A stretch of 64,000 bases of DNA from positions 24,512-88,511 of the forward strand of contig QZIL01000093.1 in NCBI GenBank assembly GCA_003599025.1. Reading direction: 5' to 3'. Under the pieces are notes generated by a model. That model was not told where the DNA came from, ran no database searches, and saw only the letters and a list, made by a program, of their open reading frames with translations. Numbering within the stretch: the first letter of the stretch is position 1; each line of letters starts with the position of its first letter. The position numbers were made by a program, and so were the translations under genes. Origin of the DNA: Nitrospiraceae bacterium (lineage in GTDB: Bacteria; Nitrospirota; Thermodesulfovibrionia; UBA6902). Below are positions 19,543 through 54,800 of the stretch, piece after piece.

Positions 19543-19612
19543 GTCATTCCCGCAAGCGAAGCGCGTCGGGAATCCTTCTTGAAAAAGATTCTGGACAAGC
19601 CGGAATGACAGA
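19543..19612 (+). repeat. family-A palindromic interspersed element (GTCATTCCCGC..CGGGAATC..CCGGAATGAC)
   Basis: about 70 nt with terminal and internal inverted repeats; near-identical inverted copy at 54727..54800. Confidence 0.7.
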
Positions 19613-22657: not shown

Positions 22658-22795
22658 CCGGTATTACCCGGCCTCCAATCTGCCTATAAAAATAATATAG
22701 TGCTTCTTGGCAAAACATAACATGATATTTATCATATCGGACGACACGTTAATAATTAGATTCCGCTGTGGAAAGTGATTTCCACTTACCTGAAT

Positions 22796-22865
22796 GTCAT
22801 TTCGAACGGAGTGAGAAATCCAAACATGCTGCGAATGCAAGATTTCTCCCGTTGGTCGAAATGAC
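22796..22865. repeat. family-B palindromic element (GTCATTTCGA..GAGAAATC..GATTTCTC..TCGAAATGAC)
   Basis: nested inverted repeats; second copy at 27334..27405. Confidence 0.65.
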
Positions 22866-22950
22866 AATGTTCCCTGAATATTCTTATTTCAGGTTTCCGC
22901 AAGAGTTCTAACATAAGGAGTTGAGAAGGTAAGACGTTATCAAGTCGACT

Positions 22951-27264: not shown

Positions 27265-27333
27265 ATTATATTCCCTCTTTTCTGCTAACTAGTTCCTGTT
27301 GCGGAAACTATAAAATACTTATGTAGCTGGATG

Positions 27334-27405
27334 GTCATTTCGACCAGCGGGAGAAATCTTTCGGTATTGCAACGGGTTAAGATTTCTCGCTTCACTCGAA
27401 ATGAC
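27334..27405. repeat. family-B palindromic element
   Basis: gtcatttcgaccagcgggagaaatc...gatttctcgcttcactcgaaatgac between lptE and leuS. Confidence 0.65.
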
Positions 27406-27470
27406 ATGTTAATATCAGATTATCACTTTCCTCAACAGATACTGACTACTAACTCCTGACTACTTGCTAC

Positions 27471-30211: not shown

Positions 30212-32518
30212 TTGACACGTAAAGATTCAACAGAATTAAGTGCACGCGTTCTGCTTTCCGGTGCCGGTCATTTCCTTATTGCACTTGCACTGACAATATC
30301 ATTAGTTCTTGCCGGTATTTTAACCGCCTCAGCTGAAACTTCTCCCCTTATCAAGATGATTGATATAAAGGGAAACCGGAAAATCAGTACAGATACAATT
30401 TACTCAAAGATGATCAGTAAGGCAGGCGCCCCTTTTTCCAAGAATACAGTACAGGAAGACATTAAAAAATTATACGGGATAGGTTACTTTGATGATATCA
30501 GGGTCGAGATAGAGGCATTTGAAGGCGGGGTCCGACTTGTCTATATACTCATTGAAAAACCTTCGATTATCAGTCTGGATTTTCAGGGCAACAAGGAACT
30601 GGAGACCAACAACATCAGGGAAAAGATCACCCTGACTACGGGTGCTATAGCCAACCTGGCCCTCATAACTGATAATGCAAAAAAGATCGTCGTCTATTAT
30701 CAGTCAGAAGGATACTGGCTCGCAACCGTAGTCCCTGTCATCAATAAGGTCTCGGAAGACGGCATTGCCCTTACCTTTCAGATACAGGAGGGGCCGAAAG
30801 TAAGCATAGACACGATCACCTTTGACGGCAATGAGGCACTTTCTGACAGAGAGATCAAGCGTGTGATGAAAACAAAGGAATGGTGGATATTTTCTTTTCT
30901 TACAGGATCGGGGGTTTACAGTGAAGAACAGATGAGGGCGGATTTATCAGCAATAAAGGAGTTGTGTCAGAGTAAGGGGTACATTTACATTGCCGTCTCT
31001 GATCCGCGAGTTGTGCTGAGTGAGGACAAAAAAGACCTTGATATTACAATATCAATTTCTGAAGGCGACCAGTACAGGGTCGGGAGTATAAAAGTGAAGG
31101 ACAACACTGTTTTTTCTGACGCTGAACTTTATGAGCAGGTCAGGACGGCCCCGGGGCTGATATTTGACAGGACCGCACTCAAAAAGGACATTGATAAAAT
31201 CATAGACCTGTATATGGACCGGGGCTATGCCCGGGCTGATGTTGATCCTATTGTTGATGTAAATAAGGAAGAGAAGACCGCAGACATAACCCTGTCTGTA
31301 ATTGAAGGGGGAATATACAAGATCGGCAGGATTGATGTCACCGGCAATATCAAGACGCGCGACAAGGTCATACGCCGGGAGATGAGGCTTGATGAGGGGG
31401 ATACTTTCAGCAAGAAGCTCCTGATGAGAAGCTATCAGAGAATAAACAATCTTAACTATTTTGAAAGCGTGGATATCAGGCCGACTCCCAAGGTAGAGAC
31501 CCAGCTTATGGACCTTGATGTCAGGGTGGAGGAAAAGCTGACGGGCATGCTGAGCATTGGAGGCGGTTACAGTTCCGTAGACAAATTCATGGTCATGGGC
31601 GAGGTGACCCAGACAAACCTGTTCGGGAAGGGACTGCATTTAAAATTGAAAGCAGACTTCAGCTCAAGAAGAACAACCTACAATTTATCACTCCGGGACC
31701 CCTGGTTCATGGACAAACCTGTCTCCGCAGCCATAGGCGTATATAATGAAGTTATCGATTACCCTGACTATGACAAGAAGGCCACAGGCGGCAACATAAG
31801 CTTCGGTAAAGAATTGTCCGAATACGTTGGAGGCAACATCCATTATGAGATTGAACAGGTGGAGATAACAAATGTTTCGGATGATGCTTCATCACTCACG
31901 AGAGAACAGGAAGGGTCAAAGCTCACCAGCAGCATCAGCCCTTCGATATGGAGGGACACAAGGGACAATTATCTTGACCCGACAACAGGTTCAAGGAACG
32001 CGCTTTATTTAACCGTTGCCGGACTTGGAGGAGACAACCATTTCTGGAAGATGGTAGTTGATTCCGGATGGTTTTTCCCTGTAATATGGGATACGACATT
32101 CGGCATACACGGACGGTATGGGGCCGTAAGTGGCTATAACAGTCATGAGGTGCCACTGTATGAAAGATTTTACGTTGGCGGCATTAATACCATAAGGGGG
32201 CTTGGATTTGGTGAAGGCGGCCCCATTAATGAAGAGGGTGAAGAAATCGGAGGGGTCCAGCAGATGATAATCAATGCTGAATATATTTTCCCTCTGGTAA
32301 ATGAAATGAAACTAAAAGGGGTGCTGTTTTTTGACTACGGAGGCGCCTTTGATCAGAGTTACAGCGTGTCTGAACGCAATATGAGAAGGACAACCGGTGC
32401 CGGGGTGAGATGGATGTCTCCGCTGGGCCCGCTGAGACTTGAGTGGGGATATAATCTGGACAAGAGAGAAAACGAGGGCCAGCATAAATGGGAATTTTCA
32501 TTGGGAGGGTTCTTTTAG
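30212..32518 (+). CDS. bamA: outer membrane protein assembly factor BamA
   Basis: 768 aa; TTG start; signal peptide, five POTRA-like repeats, Omp85 barrel ending ...WEFSLGGFF. Confidence 0.9.
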   Translation: MTRKDSTELSARVLLSGAGHFLIALALTISLVLAGILTASAETSPLIKMIDIKGNRKISTDTIYSKMISKAGAPFSKNTVQEDIKKLYGIGYFDDIRVEIEAFEGGVRLVYILIEKPSIISLDFQGNKELETNNIREKITLTTGAIANLALITDNAKKIVVYYQSEGYWLATVVPVINKVSEDGIALTFQIQEGPKVSIDTITFDGNEALSDREIKRVMKTKEWWIFSFLTGSGVYSEEQMRADLSAIKELCQSKGYIYIAVSDPRVVLSEDKKDLDITISISEGDQYRVGSIKVKDNTVFSDAELYEQVRTAPGLIFDRTALKKDIDKIIDLYMDRGYARADVDPIVDVNKEEKTADITLSVIEGGIYKIGRIDVTGNIKTRDKVIRREMRLDEGDTFSKKLLMRSYQRINNLNYFESVDIRPTPKVETQLMDLDVRVEEKLTGMLSIGGGYSSVDKFMVMGEVTQTNLFGKGLHLKLKADFSSRRTTYNLSLRDPWFMDKPVSAAIGVYNEVIDYPDYDKKATGGNISFGKELSEYVGGNIHYEIEQVEITNVSDDASSLTREQEGSKLTSSISPSIWRDTRDNYLDPTTGSRNALYLTVAGLGGDNHFWKMVVDSGWFFPVIWDTTFGIHGRYGAVSGYNSHEVPLYERFYVGGINTIRGLGFGEGGPINEEGEEIGGVQQMIINAEYIFPLVNEMKLKGVLFFDYGGAFDQSYSVSERNMRRTTGAGVRWMSPLGPLRLEWGYNLDKRENEGQHKWEFSLGGFF

Positions 32519-32564
32519 ATGCGGGTGTTTTGCTGTCAGTGTACAGCTATATAAAATTTAATGT

Positions 32565-32795
32565 TTCATAAATCAGGCAAGCGGCCTCGGAATCAAGTCG
32601 GATCGACTCGCCGCAAAACCTTTACAATGCGATTGAATATTGAAATTAAACCATTACGGCAGGACTTAACACCTGGTGAAATCCGGAAAGACACCATTTA
32701 TGCTTTCATGAATTTCGCTAACGTAACGCAGGTAAAGCTTTTCCATCAAGTCCGCTTGCCTGGCATAAACAATCTAATGCAACTGCAATATAAAT
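32565..32795 (+). repeat. conserved ~225-nt noncoding element, copy 1 (candidate sRNA or 5' leader)
   Basis: about 75% identical to 51836..52055 along most of its length; carries a 27-nt family-A fragment insertion; the overlapping 78-aa ORF is not conserved in copy 2. Confidence 0.5.
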
Positions 32796-32805
32796 AGGAG
32801 GATTT

Positions 32806-33324
32806 ATGAGAAAGATATTTTTTCTGATTATTATCATTTCTGTGGCCGCATTCAGTGCTCAGGCAGCTGAGCTCAAGATTGGATACATAGATTTTCAAAA
32901 GATCGTATCGCAATCCGAGCAGGGCAAGCAGGCAATGAAGACACTGGATAGCATTGAGAATGCAAAAAATGCTCTTATTAATGATAAGATCGAACAGATC
33001 AAGAAGCTTGAAGAGGAGCTGACCAAGCAGGGGGCTGTCCTTAATCTTGAGACCAAAGAAAAGAAACAGGCAGACCATGAAAGACTGATGATGGAATATC
33101 AGAAGATGAGAAGAGACCGTGACGAAGAACTGAAAAAGAATGAGGCTGAATTAATCCAGAAGATAGTCCTGGATGTCAGAAAACTCCTGGCAAAGATATC
33201 TGAAGAGGAGGGCTATGCGGTAATTCTTAATGAGGCCGGCATTGCATATATCCGCCCTGAGTCTGACATGACTGACAGGGTGCTTAAATTGTTCAATGAA
33301 TCTTCTGTTAACGTTAAAAAATAG
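32806..33324 (+). CDS. skp: OmpH/Skp family periplasmic chaperone
   Basis: 172 aa; signal peptide, KIGYIDFQKI start of Skp fold, coiled-coil body. Confidence 0.8.
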   Translation: MRKIFFLIIIISVAAFSAQAAELKIGYIDFQKIVSQSEQGKQAMKTLDSIENAKNALINDKIEQIKKLEEELTKQGAVLNLETKEKKQADHERLMMEYQKMRRDRDEELKKNEAELIQKIVLDVRKLLAKISEEEGYAVILNEAGIAYIRPESDMTDRVLKLFNESSVNVKK

Positions 33325-36560: not shown

Positions 36561-36769
36561 GAGCTTCCTTATTTACAACTGACGAAAAGAATTCCTTGCC
36601 CTTTACTATAATAGCAATCGTAACCATTCACTAAAGGGTGGAAAGCTTCTGGTCCGTAATTTATCCGCAAGATAATCACTTCGGGAATCTGCCTTTTTAT
36701 TCCCCATTAAAAAAAGGGGGACACAGGGGGATATTGAAATAATACACACCCATAGTCCCTTTTACTGGT

Positions 36770-36803
36770 GAAGGGGATTCCGGACAAGCCGGAATGACAG
36801 GTT
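36770..36803. repeat. family-A element, partial (3' module ggattccggacaagccggaatgac)
   Basis: matches the right half of the 19543 copy. Confidence 0.5.
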
Positions 36804-36940
36804 ATCTCTACCCTTAAGTGAAGGGTTGCCGGCAACCTGAAATCTGAAATTTTCCCTACCCCTTTATCATTTGTTTTGTTATACTTATTTTATTTTTGTC
36901 CGGCTTTTCATTTAAATCAATCTTATATTGAGGCATAATA

Positions 36941-49592: not shown

Positions 49593-50930
49593 ATGAAAAA
49601 AATATTTCTGGTATCGGCCATATTATTCATTTTTACCTCGTCAGCCTTTGCCGAGTTCCCTGCTGTAAAGGTATACGAGAAGACGGCAAAGAATGTTGTG
49701 CTGATAATCGCCAAAAGCGAAGACACCAGCAGTATGATAGGCGCGGGATCCATTATTTCAGGCACTGGACTGGTCTCTACAAACGCACATGTAGTTGTTG
49801 ACAAGTCTACCTCAAAACCATATTCAAAGATCAGGGTATATCTTAAACCTGATAAGGTGACCGGGAAGTTCAGGAAGGACCTTGTCCATAGCCATAAGGC
49901 TGAAATAGTAGCATATGACATCGACCTGGACCTGGCCATTCTGAAAGCTGAAGAAATCCCGTCCGGGACAGGGACCATAGAACTTGCAAACCCGGATGAG
50001 ATAAAAGTCGGCGAAGAGGCAGTGGCTATCGGCCACCCTGAGCAGGGAGGCCTCTGGACCCTCACATACGGAAGAATAAGCGGAGAAATAGAAGACCAGA
50101 ACAGCATAAAGGGTAAAGACGTATTTCAGACAGACGCGAGCGTCAACCGCGGCAATTCCGGCGGCCCTCTCCTCGATAAAAGAGGGTACATGATAGGCAT
50201 AAACTCAAACATGGCGCGTCTGGGGGCAGGTGATATTCCGATAACAGGTGTTAATTTTGCTGTCAAGGCCTCGGTGCTGAAAAGCTGGCTTCAGAAGCAG
50301 GGGATTACACTTGCTTATGGAAAAGCGGACCTGTACAAAGAAGAACGGGTGAAGCCCGCAGGAGCAGAACTTGAGATGGAGAAAAAATCTGAACAACCGG
50401 AAGTACCAAGGGCAGAACCCTCTGTTGAGAAAGCAGAGCCTGTTATAGAGAAACCGGAACCGTCTGTTGAAAAGACTGAGCCGTCGGTAGAAAAAGCAGA
50501 ACCAGTCGCTGAGAAAGCGGAACCATCTGTTGAAAAGACTGAGCCGTCGGTAGAAAAAGCAGAACCAGTCGCTGAGAAAGCGGAACCATCTGTTGAAAAG
50601 ACTGAGCCATCAGTAGAAAAAGCCGAACCTGTCGTTGAGAAGGCGGAACCATCTGTTGAAAAGGCGGAAGCCCCTGTCGAGAAGGCGAAACCTGTAATAA
50701 GGCAGGCTGAACCACCTGTCAGGAAATCACATACTGTTGTTGAAAAAGCGGAACCCCGTGCTGAACAGAAAGACATGAAAGACGGGGACGGAGAGAAAAC
50801 GCCGGAGACTGAACAGACTGAAAAATACCAGCCTCATCGTAAGGCCTACAGCTATGACTCATTGTTGAAGGCAGCTGAAGAAGATCTTGAAGACATGATG
50901 GAGGAGATGAGGGGAAAGATCAGAAGGTGA
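49593..50930 (+). CDS. secreted trypsin-like serine protease with C-terminal EK/P-rich tandem-repeat linker
   Basis: signal peptide; TNAHVV (His), DLAIL (Asp), GNSGGPL (Ser) triad; C-terminal repeats (EKAEPSVEKTEPSVEKAEPVA)n. Confidence 0.7.
   Translation: MKKIFLVSAILFIFTSSAFAEFPAVKVYEKTAKNVVLIIAKSEDTSSMIGAGSIISGTGLVSTNAHVVVDKSTSKPYSKIRVYLKPDKVTGKFRKDLVHSHKAEIVAYDIDLDLAILKAEEIPSGTGTIELANPDEIKVGEEAVAIGHPEQGGLWTLTYGRISGEIEDQNSIKGKDVFQTDASVNRGNSGGPLLDKRGYMIGINSNMARLGAGDIPITGVNFAVKASVLKSWLQKQGITLAYGKADLYKEERVKPAGAELEMEKKSEQPEVPRAEPSVEKAEPVIEKPEPSVEKTEPSVEKAEPVAEKAEPSVEKTEPSVEKAEPVAEKAEPSVEKTEPSVEKAEPVVEKAEPSVEKAEAPVEKAKPVIRQAEPPVRKSHTVVEKAEPRAEQKDMKDGDGEKTPETEQTEKYQPHRKAYSYDSLLKAAEEDLEDMMEEMRGKIRR
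50448..50700 (+). repeat. in-frame 63-bp coding tandem repeat (about 3.5 units)
   Basis: the unit gagaaagcggaaccatctgttgaaaagactgagccgtcggtagaaaaagcagaaccagtcgct is repeated nearly perfectly inside the protease gene. Confidence 0.75.
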
Positions 50931-51817
50931 TGAAGATAGAGAGCATAAAAATAATCAAATGCCTGCTTTCATTTTTTATTGTTACATATGCTGTGGCGGT
51001 ATATTCTTCAAAGGCGCTTAGAGCTGAGGACACGGCCCCGCTTGTTCCGGACAATGATAACCTTAAGATAGTAGAAGCTGTTGGAGAAATTCTGCTTGGT
51101 GATGACACCACCCCTGCACAGGGCAGGGCAATGGCCCGTAATAACGCGAGGAGAAATGCTCTTGAACAGGCAGTAGGGGTAAAGGTCCACAGCTCGACAG
51201 TTTTATACAATAGCAGCCTTATAAGCGACCTTGTTGTAACAGCCACCAAGGGGCTGATAGTTGAAGAACAAATAATTGATGACGGGCCGGTCATAAAAGG
51301 AGACCAGATATATCATATTTGCAAGCTCAGGGCATATGTAAAGCCTGTCAATATAGAAAAGAGAGGGAACTTCAGGGTCCTTAAAGCTGAAGTCCTGAGG
51401 GCCGGGTCGGACAGAGGTCTTAAAAACCCTGTATTTCAGGACAATGATGAAATACAGGTGATAGTAAGTGTTAATGAAGCTTCACATATAAATATTTTCA
51501 GCGTGAGCCAGGACGGAATGGTTTCGCAGCTTTATCCGAATAAATTTTTTAAATCAGAGCAGCTGGCTGCCGACAAGACCATGATATTCCCGGATGATGC
51601 CCAGCGGGCACTTGGACTGAGACTCCGTGTAAGGACCCCGAAAAAACTGAGCTCGGCACTTGAATCGGTGCTCGTGGTAGCTTCAAAGGAAATGATCGAG
51701 TTGCATCCTGCAGACGGGATGAATGAGCTTATGCTTACGGACGTTCTGAAGAGTCTTTCTGGAATCGATCCGTCATTATGGGCTGATATGACAGTCGGGT
51801 ATGAGGTGAGGAAGTAG
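50927..51817 (+). CDS. LPP20-like plus DUF4384 domain protein
   Basis: 296 aa; signal peptide; N-terminal LPP20-like core (AVGEIL..AQGRAMARNNARRNALEQAVGVKV); C-terminal DUF4384-like (EIQVIVSVNEASHINIFSVSQDGMVSQLYPNKFF). Confidence 0.55.
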   Translation: MMKIESIKIIKCLLSFFIVTYAVAVYSSKALRAEDTAPLVPDNDNLKIVEAVGEILLGDDTTPAQGRAMARNNARRNALEQAVGVKVHSSTVLYNSSLISDLVVTATKGLIVEEQIIDDGPVIKGDQIYHICKLRAYVKPVNIEKRGNFRVLKAEVLRAGSDRGLKNPVFQDNDEIQVIVSVNEASHINIFSVSQDGMVSQLYPNKFFKSEQLAADKTMIFPDDAQRALGLRLRVRTPKKLSSALESVLVVASKEMIELHPADGMNELMLTDVLKSLSGIDPSLWADMTVGYEVRK

Positions 51818-51835
51818 CGGGTCAATTTTACCTTA

Positions 51836-52055
51836 ATGTTGCATAAAGCAGGCAAGCGGCCTTGCTGTAAAACCTTTACAATGCGATGGTAAATTGGGAT
51901 TAAACTTTGGCAGCAGGTCTTAATGCTAAGCGAAGTTCAGAATAATATACGTTATGCTTTTATGAATCTTGCTGAGGTATCGCAGGTAAAGCTTTTCCGT
52001 CAAGCCCGCTCACCTTATACGAGTAATTTAATGCAACTGGAAAGTTTATATATGA
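51836..52055 (+). repeat. conserved ~225-nt noncoding element, copy 2
   Basis: shares blocks with copy 1: taatgtt.cataaa.caggcaagcggcc, aaacctttacaatgcgat, gcaggtaaagcttttcc.tcaag.ccgct, taatgcaactg. Confidence 0.5.
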
Positions 52056-52066
52056 AGTGAGGTGAT

Positions 52067-52285
52067 ATGTCAGCAGTGAAATGTACATCTAAACTCATAA
52101 TCGGCCTTTTGATTGGTGCGATGCTCGGACTCTGGATCGGCGTCAATATCGGAAGGGAACGCCCCCTGTTCAGCAATCCCTTCAGGAAGGAAAGCGTATA
52201 TGAAAAATTCAGGAAAGCGGGCAGGGGATTAGGTGACGCTATAAAGGAAAGCGCTGATGAATTGCACGATAAATTGAAAGAATGA
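52067..52285 (+). CDS. small membrane protein, hypothetical
   Basis: 72 aa; one TM helix (LIIGLLIGAMLGLWIGVNI); downstream of the conserved noncoding element. Confidence 0.3.
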   Translation: MSAVKCTSKLIIGLLIGAMLGLWIGVNIGRERPLFSNPFRKESVYEKFRKAGRGLGDAIKESADELHDKLKE

Positions 52286-54632: not shown

Positions 54633-54726
54633 CCGGAAAAATTTCTGTGATAATCTGCGTCCATCTGTGAATGAAATATTTCTAAAACCTATCTCAAAAT
54701 CAAAAACAGAACATTATTGAATAGCT

Positions 54727-54800
54727 TGTCATTCCGGCTTGTCCGGAATCTTTCTTTGTTTTCAGTAAGATTCCCGACGCGCTTCGCTTGCGGGAATGAC
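54727..54800 (-). repeat. family-A element (inverted copy of the 19543 element)
   Basis: reverse complement of 19543..19612 matches 54727..54800 with only a few substitutions. Confidence 0.7.

Follow-up and report, generated by a model that had tools for sequence, protein, structure and literature searches.

Two conserved non-coding stretches in a Nitrospiraceae contig are probably copies of a miniature inverted-repeat mobile element

Miniature inverted-repeat transposable elements, or MITEs, are by definition small (50-800 bp), non-coding elements (PMC11602168). The ERIC/IRU repeats of enterobacteria and the Correia elements (CREE/NEMIS) of Neisseria are often co-transcribed with neighbouring genes; the Correia RNA is cut by RNase III at the terminal repeats, and the ERIC RNA exposes an RNase E site and alters mRNA levels (PMC10969869). 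REPINs have conserved inverted ends, preserve spacer length and the capacity to form a hairpin rather than sequence, commonly show compensatory changes, and occur as extragenic, multi-copy repeats with tandem clusters and singlet or truncated remnants (PMC3116915). Here we analyse two conserved non-coding stretches in a 64-kb window (the whole stretch of DNA studied, from contig QZIL01000093.1 of a Nitrospiraceae bacterium), one upstream of skp (copy 1) and the other upstream of a gene for a 72-aa membrane protein, orf72 (copy 2). Both are probably copies of a non-autonomous, MITE-like mobile DNA element of Thermodesulfovibrionia-type Nitrospirota.

Like the ERIC and Correia elements (~100-220 bp), the Nitrospirota element is small, non-coding, imperfectly palindromic and intergenic, and it likewise occurs in many copies that are present or absent between relatives; its ends, too, are inverted repeats next to a short target duplication. 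However, it has no sequence relationship to either and lives in another phylum, it is best conserved in its internal stem and not at its termini, and its sister families keep termini, length and fold while the centre is swapped. Moreover, the target duplication of Correia elements is TA, whereas any 2 bp can be duplicated here. With REPINs it shares the conserved inverted ends, the compensatory changes, the tandem clusters and the truncated remnants, but it has about twice their length, the termini are no REP palindromes, it is flanked by a 2-bp duplication, and no RAYT gene was found nearby. Structured cis-regulatory RNAs with many copies, such as riboswitch classes with dozens of them, are alike in their conserved core, covarying stems and sense placement upstream of genes; the Nitrospirota element differs from these in being mobile, flanked by target-site duplications, independent of gene class and missing at orthologous sites, and in showing neither an expression platform nor a strand-specific G·U signature.

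An earlier, sequence-only reading of the window had placed the two stretches at 32565-32795 and 51836-52055 and had taken them for a non-coding repeat, conserved at the nucleotide level and not explained by gene duplication, which would be a candidate structured small RNA (sRNA) or a leader. The repeat is real and its non-coding character is borne out. In a MAFFT alignment 32558-32790 and 51833-52045 correspond over their whole length with ~75% identity, blastn returns two matches, one of 182 nt at 73% identity (E 6e-26) and one of 30 nt at 93%, and a direct repeat search of the window recovers the same pairing of copy 1 with copy 2, both of which contain every conserved block that had been picked out. 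No third copy was found in the window by blastn, nhmmer or terminus searches. Also, the 78-aa open reading frame (ORF) of copy 1 is indeed broken in copy 2, the downstream genes (skp/OmpH and the 72-aa membrane-protein gene) are unrelated, gene duplication is not the explanation, and the copies end directly ahead of a ribosome-binding site (RBS), 14-21 nt 5' of the next start codon. From more than 30 further copies the boundaries move to 32555-32791 (237 nt) and 51830-52045 (216 nt), and the insertion of copy 1, given as 27 nt, shrinks to 21 nt (32587-32607). The sequence-only reading had allowed that further homologs and covariation might both be missing; what was found is dozens of unrelated loci and strong covariation of the stem. 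The functional assignment does not hold, because the repeat is dispersed, is bounded by terminal inverted repeats and by a 2-bp target duplication, lies at unrelated loci, is missing from orthologous spacers and matches no Rfam family.

Both window copies are precisely missing from the corresponding sites of the closest relatives. For copy 1, the bamA-skp spacers at four loci with Skp orthologues (L044-L047; 94, 83, 81 and 80% identity) are 45, 50, 51 and 38 nt long, where the spacer in the window has 287 nt, and no element is detected in any of the four by nhmmer. One of these spacers (L046) belongs to JACRQA01, a metagenome-assembled genome (MAG) that is empty at this site despite carrying at least six copies of the element elsewhere. 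At the insertion point the 94% relative reads cagctatataaaggaggatgtATG, where the window reads cagctatataaa[237 nt]aaataggaggatttATG. For copy 2, the closest relative (L048, with a DUF4384 protein 77% identical, from the same sample as L044, JGI 3300007351) reads cgggtcaatGTcatacacggaatgaggtgatat, where the window reads cgggtcaatTT[216 nt]TTatatatgaagtgaggtgatat; in short form, cgggtcaatTT[element]TTatatatgaagtgagg in the window faces the empty site cgggtcaatGTcatacacggaatgagg in L048. In this case, the target is intact with one dinucleotide in the relative, whereas the filled site has two. The orthologous spacers of L048 and L049 lack copy 2, and in that of L050 no element was detected. These comparisons show both window copies to be lineage-specific insertions. 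As the element is absent at the relatives' skp and orf72 loci, neither gene needs it.

The flanks of further copies agree with insertion. Among 14 copies delimited automatically by the ends ACCTTA...TAAGGT, 8 have an exact 2-bp direct duplication, with 2.3 expected and none of 2000 shuffles reaching 8. In a curated set from all families the exact 2-bp duplication is present in 19 of 28 copies, and three more show 3 bp. The duplicated dinucleotide is variable (TT, AA, CT, TA, GA, TG, AG, TC, GT), and the flanks are AT-rich, with 72% and 67% A+T over 10 nt. Moreover, there are truncated copies (L009, L015, L017, L026/L028, L040), copies interrupted by other small palindromes (L003, L007, L023), and tandem mini-elements; the minis carry flanking duplications of their own.

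A scan of 185,579 genomes, one per species, with an 18-mer of the inner-stem core as query gave 43 loci, 11 of them chance matches inside unrelated genes and 32 real copies, all in MAGs of Nitrospirota/Nitrospirae/Thermodesulfovibrionia or in unnamed relatives. Single MAGs hold several copies: at least 14 in JBFLYJ01 (MAG082), 6 in JACRQA01, and 3 each in JACQXG01 and DRDE01. An nhmmer profile run on the species-scan loci and the window recovered 29 full-length copies and ~10 truncated or interrupted ones, including three that lack the exact 18-mer. A metagenome scan with the left 19-nt terminus gave 25 loci, of which 14 are real: 3 of family A (that of the window), 7 of family B, one of family C, and for the rest mini-elements of 50-72 nt with little beyond the two termini. 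About 10 solo matches to the 19-mer terminus in that scan appear to be chance, being near the expected number. Families B and C differ from family A in the centre and have an altered core (B, CAAAGCTTTATAATGCGGYC...GGTGCCGCTATAAAGCTTTTT; C, CTTTAG...CTAAAG) on the same termini, fold and length (212-214 nt). Mini forms of 60-93 nt, some of them tandem, are found in a contig of a Thermodesulfovibrio sp. (L028). Searches of plasmid, phage and viral collections turned up nothing beyond one chance hit. In the literature searched, neither the motifs of the element nor MITEs in Nitrospirae or Thermodesulfovibrio are described. The family seems specific to Thermodesulfovibrionia-type Nitrospirota; its kind is ordinary, and the family itself seems not to have been described before.

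The element is an imperfect palindrome of 212-217 bp. Its termini are 19-nt inverted repeats (ACCTTAATGTTGCATAAAT left, ATTTAATGCAACTGTAAGGT right) that pair as 6+7+4 bp around a fixed 2x2 mismatch, the left consensus being common to families A, B and C and the mini-elements. Inside them, an outer stem (CAGGCAAGCGGCCTTGCCG with CGTCAAGGCCGCTTGCCTG) leads to an inner stem (AAAACCTTTAC-AA-TGCGAT with ATCGCA-G-GTAAAGCTTTT) whose strongly conserved strands are AAAACCTTTACAATGCGAT / ATCGCAGGTAAAGCTTTT; three fixed pyrimidine-pyrimidine mismatches and a conserved AAU bulge mark this stem (CTTGCCGTAAAACCTTTACAATGCGAT / ATCGCAGGTAAAGCTTTTCCGTCAAG). The strands of the inner stem enclose a centre of ~88 nt. 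An 11-bp helix closing copy 1 (CAGGCAAGCGG/CCGCTTGCCTG), noticed before, does exist; as an account of the pairing it falls short, being a mere section of a ~46-pair hairpin that runs inward from the extreme ends. The two window copies and their neighbours are laid out as follows.

32555-32791, + strand: copy 1, 237 nt, between bamA and skp, nhmmer score 198; both termini degenerate (AATTTAATGTTTCAT... / ...ATGCAACTGCAATAT)
32587-32607, + strand: insertion private to copy 1, TCGGAATCAAGTCGGATCGAC, 21 nt in the 5' arm, a gap in 27/27 other aligned copies
32615-32633, + strand: 5' conserved core of copy 1, AAAACCTTTACAATGCGAT, 5' side of the inner stem
32722-32744, + strand: 3' conserved core of copy 1, CGTAACGCAGGTAAAGCTTTTCC, 3' side of the inner stem
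51830-52045, + strand: copy 2, 216 nt, between the DUF4384 gene and the 72-aa membrane-protein gene, nhmmer score 219
51828-51829, no strand: left target-site duplication of copy 2 (TT), from comparison with the L048 empty site
51830-51848, + strand: left terminal inverted repeat of copy 2, ACCTTAATGTTGCATAAAG
51849-51868, + strand: 5' arm of the outer stem of copy 2, CAGGCAAGCGGCCTTGCTGT, pairing with 51999-52016 in a covarying helix
51869-51887, + strand: 5' conserved core of copy 2, AAAACCTTTACAATGCGAT
51888-51975, + strand: central region of copy 2, 88 nt, conserved in family A, unrelated sequence in the other families
51976-51998, + strand: 3' conserved core of copy 2, GGTATCGCAGGTAAAGCTTTTCC
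51999-52016, + strand: 3' arm of the outer stem of copy 2, GTCAAGCCCGCTCACCTT
52025-52045, + strand: right terminal inverted repeat of copy 2, AATTTAATGCAACTGGAAAGT
52046-52047, no strand: right target-site duplication of copy 2 (TT), from the L048 empty site and the family-wide duplication statistics
30212-32518: bamA, 5' neighbour of copy 1
32806-33324: skp/OmpH, 3' neighbour of copy 1, followed by lpxD, fabZ and lpxA; PF03938 in Skp homologues
50927-51817: DUF4384 gene, 5' neighbour of copy 2
52067-52285: gene for the 72-aa membrane protein (orf72), 3' neighbour of copy 2

The 21-nt insertion of copy 1 is predicted to fold as a small hairpin of its own. In the left terminus of the same copy (32565-32575), a G-to-T change (UUUCAUAAAUC) produces full complementarity to the skp start region GAUUUAUGAGA (32801-32811), and the minimum free energy fold pairs the two; copy 2 has nothing similar, and the pairing is probably a matter of chance in AT-rich sequence. 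As for the gene behind copy 2, its ATG is ATA in the closest relative (L048:2474-2638 against window 52067-52285), where a 54-aa product is called, and the true start of the 72-aa gene would be uncertain on this comparison.

The long stem is supported by the alignment of copies. RNAalifold recovers it on 28 family-A-type copies, with double changes at 12 pairs. When the 46-pair structure was scored on families A, B and C aligned together, 87.1% of the cells were paired, against 37-44% in controls whose partners were slid by 1-3 columns; the slid controls also fell behind in pairs changed on both sides (27 against 13-20), in double-change cells (106 against 25-33) and in the covariation score (0.254 against ~0.075), and none of 500 column shuffles reached the observed value on four of the five measures. 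Single copies illustrate the changes in the outer stem.

L016, outer-stem variant: CGGAAGGGGAGGAATG / CATTCCTCCCCTTCCG
L018, outer-stem variant: CAGACAGGGGGTCT / AGACCCCCTGTCTG
L029, outer-stem variant: CGGCAGGCGGTCTTG / CAAGACCGCCTGCCTG

The inner stem is invariant within family A and covaries between families (CTTTAC/GTAAAG, CTTTAT/ATAAAG, CTTTAG/CTAAAG). The proposal of a structured element is therefore sustained, with a conserved secondary structure and abundant compensatory changes, and covariation of this strength means that the structure is under selection or otherwise actively maintained. However, nothing in the mismatch spectrum points to one RNA strand as the one under selection: the stems contain 39 G·U against 58 A·C cells on the + strand, an A·C being a G·U on the other strand, and the consensus folding energy is alike for both strands (-76.8 against -75.2 kcal/mol in alifold). 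This symmetry fits complementarity needed in DNA, as in fold-back of single-stranded DNA (ssDNA), and it also fits use of both strands. A minus-strand RNA was considered as well, since the z-scores and the G·U pairs of copy 2 hinted at it when the window copies were taken alone; the hint was a small-sample effect and is gone with 28 copies.

In its size (212-217 bp, minis 50-93 bp, no maintained ORF), in its 19-nt termini, where MITEs have at least 10-15 bp, in its 2-bp duplication, which falls within the 2-10 bp of MITEs and is a single dinucleotide at the copy-2 empty site, and in its dispersal (at least 14 copies in one MAG, both window sites empty in relatives), the element agrees with a MITE. 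Several observations weigh against this reading. Neither an autonomous parent nor a transposase whose termini match turned up in the ~8 kb around each copy at ~70 loci or in the window; the search comprised fuzzy terminus searches in all loci, distant 3' cores, and the ORFs beside truncated or solo copies and in the repeat-rich L028. About a quarter of the copies have no clean 2-bp duplication, a few showing 3-5 bp. The strong orientation bias described below is unexplained by any test made. Moreover, the termini of family A are conserved no better than the centre, whereas the inner-stem cores are conserved 3-8 times better (0.03-0.09): mean pairwise differences per site are 0.24-0.28 in the termini, 0.25-0.32 in the outer arms and 0.245 in the centre, against 0.03 in the 5' core and 0.08-0.11 in the 3' core and inner arms. 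The conservation of the 5' core is partly preselected by the search pattern; five copies found independently of the 18-mer differ at 1/19 core positions each, and L041, L022b, L011 and L023b combine decayed termini with intact cores. Finally, mini-elements without the core still appear to have moved, having their own flanking duplications, and the minis L054 and L072 are similar copies at different loci. Because such minis seem to have moved while the core is the best conserved part, the core looks dispensable for movement, unlike what simple decay of selfish DNA would give, and this is a hint that it has a function other than transposition. It is also the main reason for keeping a functional reading open.

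The copies have a marked relation to genes. Between co-directional genes the element lies in sense orientation in 13 of 14 copies of the first set and in 5 of 6 of the metagenome set, which makes ~18:2 overall, and two L028 mini-elements between same-strand genes are in sense orientation as well. The left end follows the upstream stop codon by a median of ~12 nt, and the right end precedes the longest-ORF start of the next gene by a median of ~15 nt, usually 0-30 nt. In divergent spacers the right end adjoins a gene start in four of five cases. Many insertions are in short operon-type spacers, 2-20 nt 5' of the Shine-Dalgarno sequence, and in L041, L033b and L042b the right terminus (TAAGGT/TAAGGA) itself stands at Shine-Dalgarno distance; other copies lie between convergent genes (L013, L018, L053, L066). 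The position of the insertions can be explained by a preference for AT-rich targets and selection against gene disruption. The orientation bias needs more, either selection at the level of the transcript or a strand-specific mechanism of insertion.

Two species (L026:1899-1957 and L028:3681-3748) keep, at the same place, no more of the element than its 5' half, consisting of the stem arm and AAAACCTTTACAATGCGAT. The half-element is directly upstream of the ATG of a histidine kinase gene, with TACAAT 7 nt before this ATG, which could in principle be a -10 box for a leaderless mRNA, and the case would be a possible exaptation.

For the MITE-like reading, a sequence of events can be proposed. Because no transposase was found, we can only infer that one acts in trans, recognising the shared termini and mobilising the element; IS30 and the IS5 subgroups ISL2 and IS427 make 2-3 bp duplications and are leads only for its nature. 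Insertion takes place into AT-rich intergenic spacers, with 2 bp of target duplicated. The arms would keep their complementarity since the element must fold back, either as ssDNA during transposition or as RNA once transcribed. Copies would survive mainly in the orientation of their neighbours, in short intercistronic or 5' spacers, the opposite orientation being presumably counter-selected, and survival in gene orientation inside such spacers makes it most likely that they are co-transcribed with these neighbours as a ~100-bp hairpin. By analogy with the ERIC and Correia elements, this hairpin could affect the processing or stability of the flanking mRNAs, and RNase-type processing would be the most plausible route for the element to affect its neighbours.

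The same data leave a smaller, though appreciable, chance that the element is more than selfish DNA, either because the core is a portable functional module or because the element is a folded-DNA substrate of a novel transposition system that leaves a 2-bp duplication; the conservation of the core, the core-less minis, the ~18:2 co-orientation and the placement before start codons all speak for it. In its first form, the core could be a hairpin that a protein or RNase recognises in polycistronic mRNA, or else a site on the DNA where a host factor acts, and it would rewire the expression of the gene that it precedes. A REPIN-like mode of spread, in which a single-copy HUH/Y1 transposase (RAYT- or IS200/IS605-like) that acts on ssDNA takes the hairpin as its substrate, appears unlikely. 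It predicts a stem conserved in structure over sequence and an orientation biased by replication and hence by genes, and the architecture agrees with the published description of REPINs (PMC3116915), as do the compensatory changes in the hairpin. Also in its favour are the length conserved at 212-217 nt across families, the strand-symmetric mismatches, the strong orientation bias and the failure to find a classical transposase. However, the copies have a 2-bp target duplication, whereas insertion of the IS200/IS605/RAYT type is not known to leave one; moreover, no constant tetra- or pentanucleotide stands 5' of the copies, the termini as read from the sequence are not short REP-type palindromes, and no Y1 transposase adjoins any copy in the ~8 kb searched per locus.

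Even less support can be given to a cis-regulatory structured RNA on the + transcript that would control the next gene (as riboswitch-like leader, RNA thermometer or module for intercistronic processing) and for which the spread would be secondary, and this is improbable in spite of the strong covariation, the conserved core with fixed internal loops, and the gene-co-oriented copies ending 0-30 nt before the next start codon. The right terminus UAAGGU/UAAGGA at Shine-Dalgarno distance in several copies and its complementarity to the 5' terminus ACCUUA would suit such a role. However, the element is absent upstream of skp and orf72 at the orthologous loci of close relatives, it stands before unrelated genes, there are copies between convergent genes as well as truncated and tandem ones, and target-site duplications are present. 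In addition, + strand G·U is not in excess of A·C, and both window genes have their own RBS outside the element. Both strands fold alike, no + strand terminator follows the element, and sequestration of the RBS in folds is weak, copy-specific and inconsistent between the window copies. The Rfam comparison proposed by the sequence-only reading matched no family: the whole window gave 0 matches at gathering thresholds (6S RNA, omega/HEARO RNA, tracrRNA and others included), and a search of the two copies at E up to 10 yielded chance matches alone, all of <15 bits. The chance that the element is a multi-copy gene for a trans-acting sRNA or a small protein (a 26-78 aa ORF, ...YAFMNLAEVSQVKLFRQ...NLMQL*) is very slight. 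The + frame is open over ~43 codons in most family-A copies, and in the 216-nt form the ATG of the left terminus is in frame with the TAA of the right one. However, the whole-element frame is stop-free in only 5 of 34 copies and the length is a multiple of three in 18 of 34, the internal ATG is missing in ~10 of 28, and indels of 1 and 5 nt shift the frame. Variability by codon position (0.57/0.51/0.70) is not coding-like, in the most conserved block third positions do not vary either, family B has the homologous core in another frame with the start not conserved, and Pfam and NCBIfam give no match for the ORFs of the element. Protein coding was rejected on these grounds for the 45- and 78-aa ORFs, the 26-aa core ORF and the whole-element ORF alike. 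A scan for consensus motifs gave no σ70-type promoter inside either copy, the sole promoter-like match (32806-32834) falling inside the skp ORF 3' of copy 1, and no terminator in the element's own orientation; the only terminator-like match, a weak minus-strand site in copy 2, hints at most that antisense placement would be polar. A sigma-54 promoter, an IHF site and an integron attC site were compared by eye and set aside, as spacing or polarity did not fit. Taken together, the element is MITE-like, possibly REPIN-like, and not an sRNA gene or a gene-specific leader.

As a kind the element is unsurprising, hairpin MITEs and REPINs being well known in other phyla. However, blocks of ~215 bp will recur as candidate structured non-coding RNAs in genomes and MAGs of Nitrospirota/Thermodesulfovibrionia, where recognising the repeat family by its defined consensus, termini and 2-bp duplication prevents misannotation and also explains contig breaks and chimeras in MAG assemblies. 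Three long subfamilies and minis with identical termini form a clean natural data set on selection in hairpin repeats, and the conserved inner stem and the co-orientation are testable hints of host use or of non-standard mobilisation.

Other repeats were noticed alongside. A second, unrelated palindromic family of ~75 nt is present at window positions 22794-22868 and 27331-27407, with arms GTCATTTCGA..GAGAAATC / GATTTCTC..TCGAAATGAC; the two units are intergenic, 4.5 kb apart and inverted. A third consists of short GC-rich hairpins (GTCATTCCGGCTTGTCCGGAATC / GTCATTCCCGCAAGCGAAGCGCGTCGGGAATC types) at 19543-19611, 36769-36805 and 54721-54800, and units akin to these (GGATTCCCGTTTTCACGGGAATGAC) are inserted within an element copy in L007. 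These genomes appear rich in several classes of palindromic repeat. Also, a perfect palindrome of 28 nt (GTAGGGGCATGGCGCGCCATGCCCCTAC and variants) sits inside three element copies (L003:1880-1920, L023:~40-90, L007:~2690-2720), which suggests another tiny mobile hairpin that targets or tolerates the element. Finally, the gene immediately upstream of that for DUF4384 codes for a trypsin-like serine protease (ORF 49593-50930) and carries in its C-terminal half, at 50408-50764, at least 11 tandem 21-bp repeats encoding a 7-residue (E/K)PSVEK(A/T)-like unit, and the orthologues of this protease in L048-L050 are shorter, with 363-396 aa against 445 aa.

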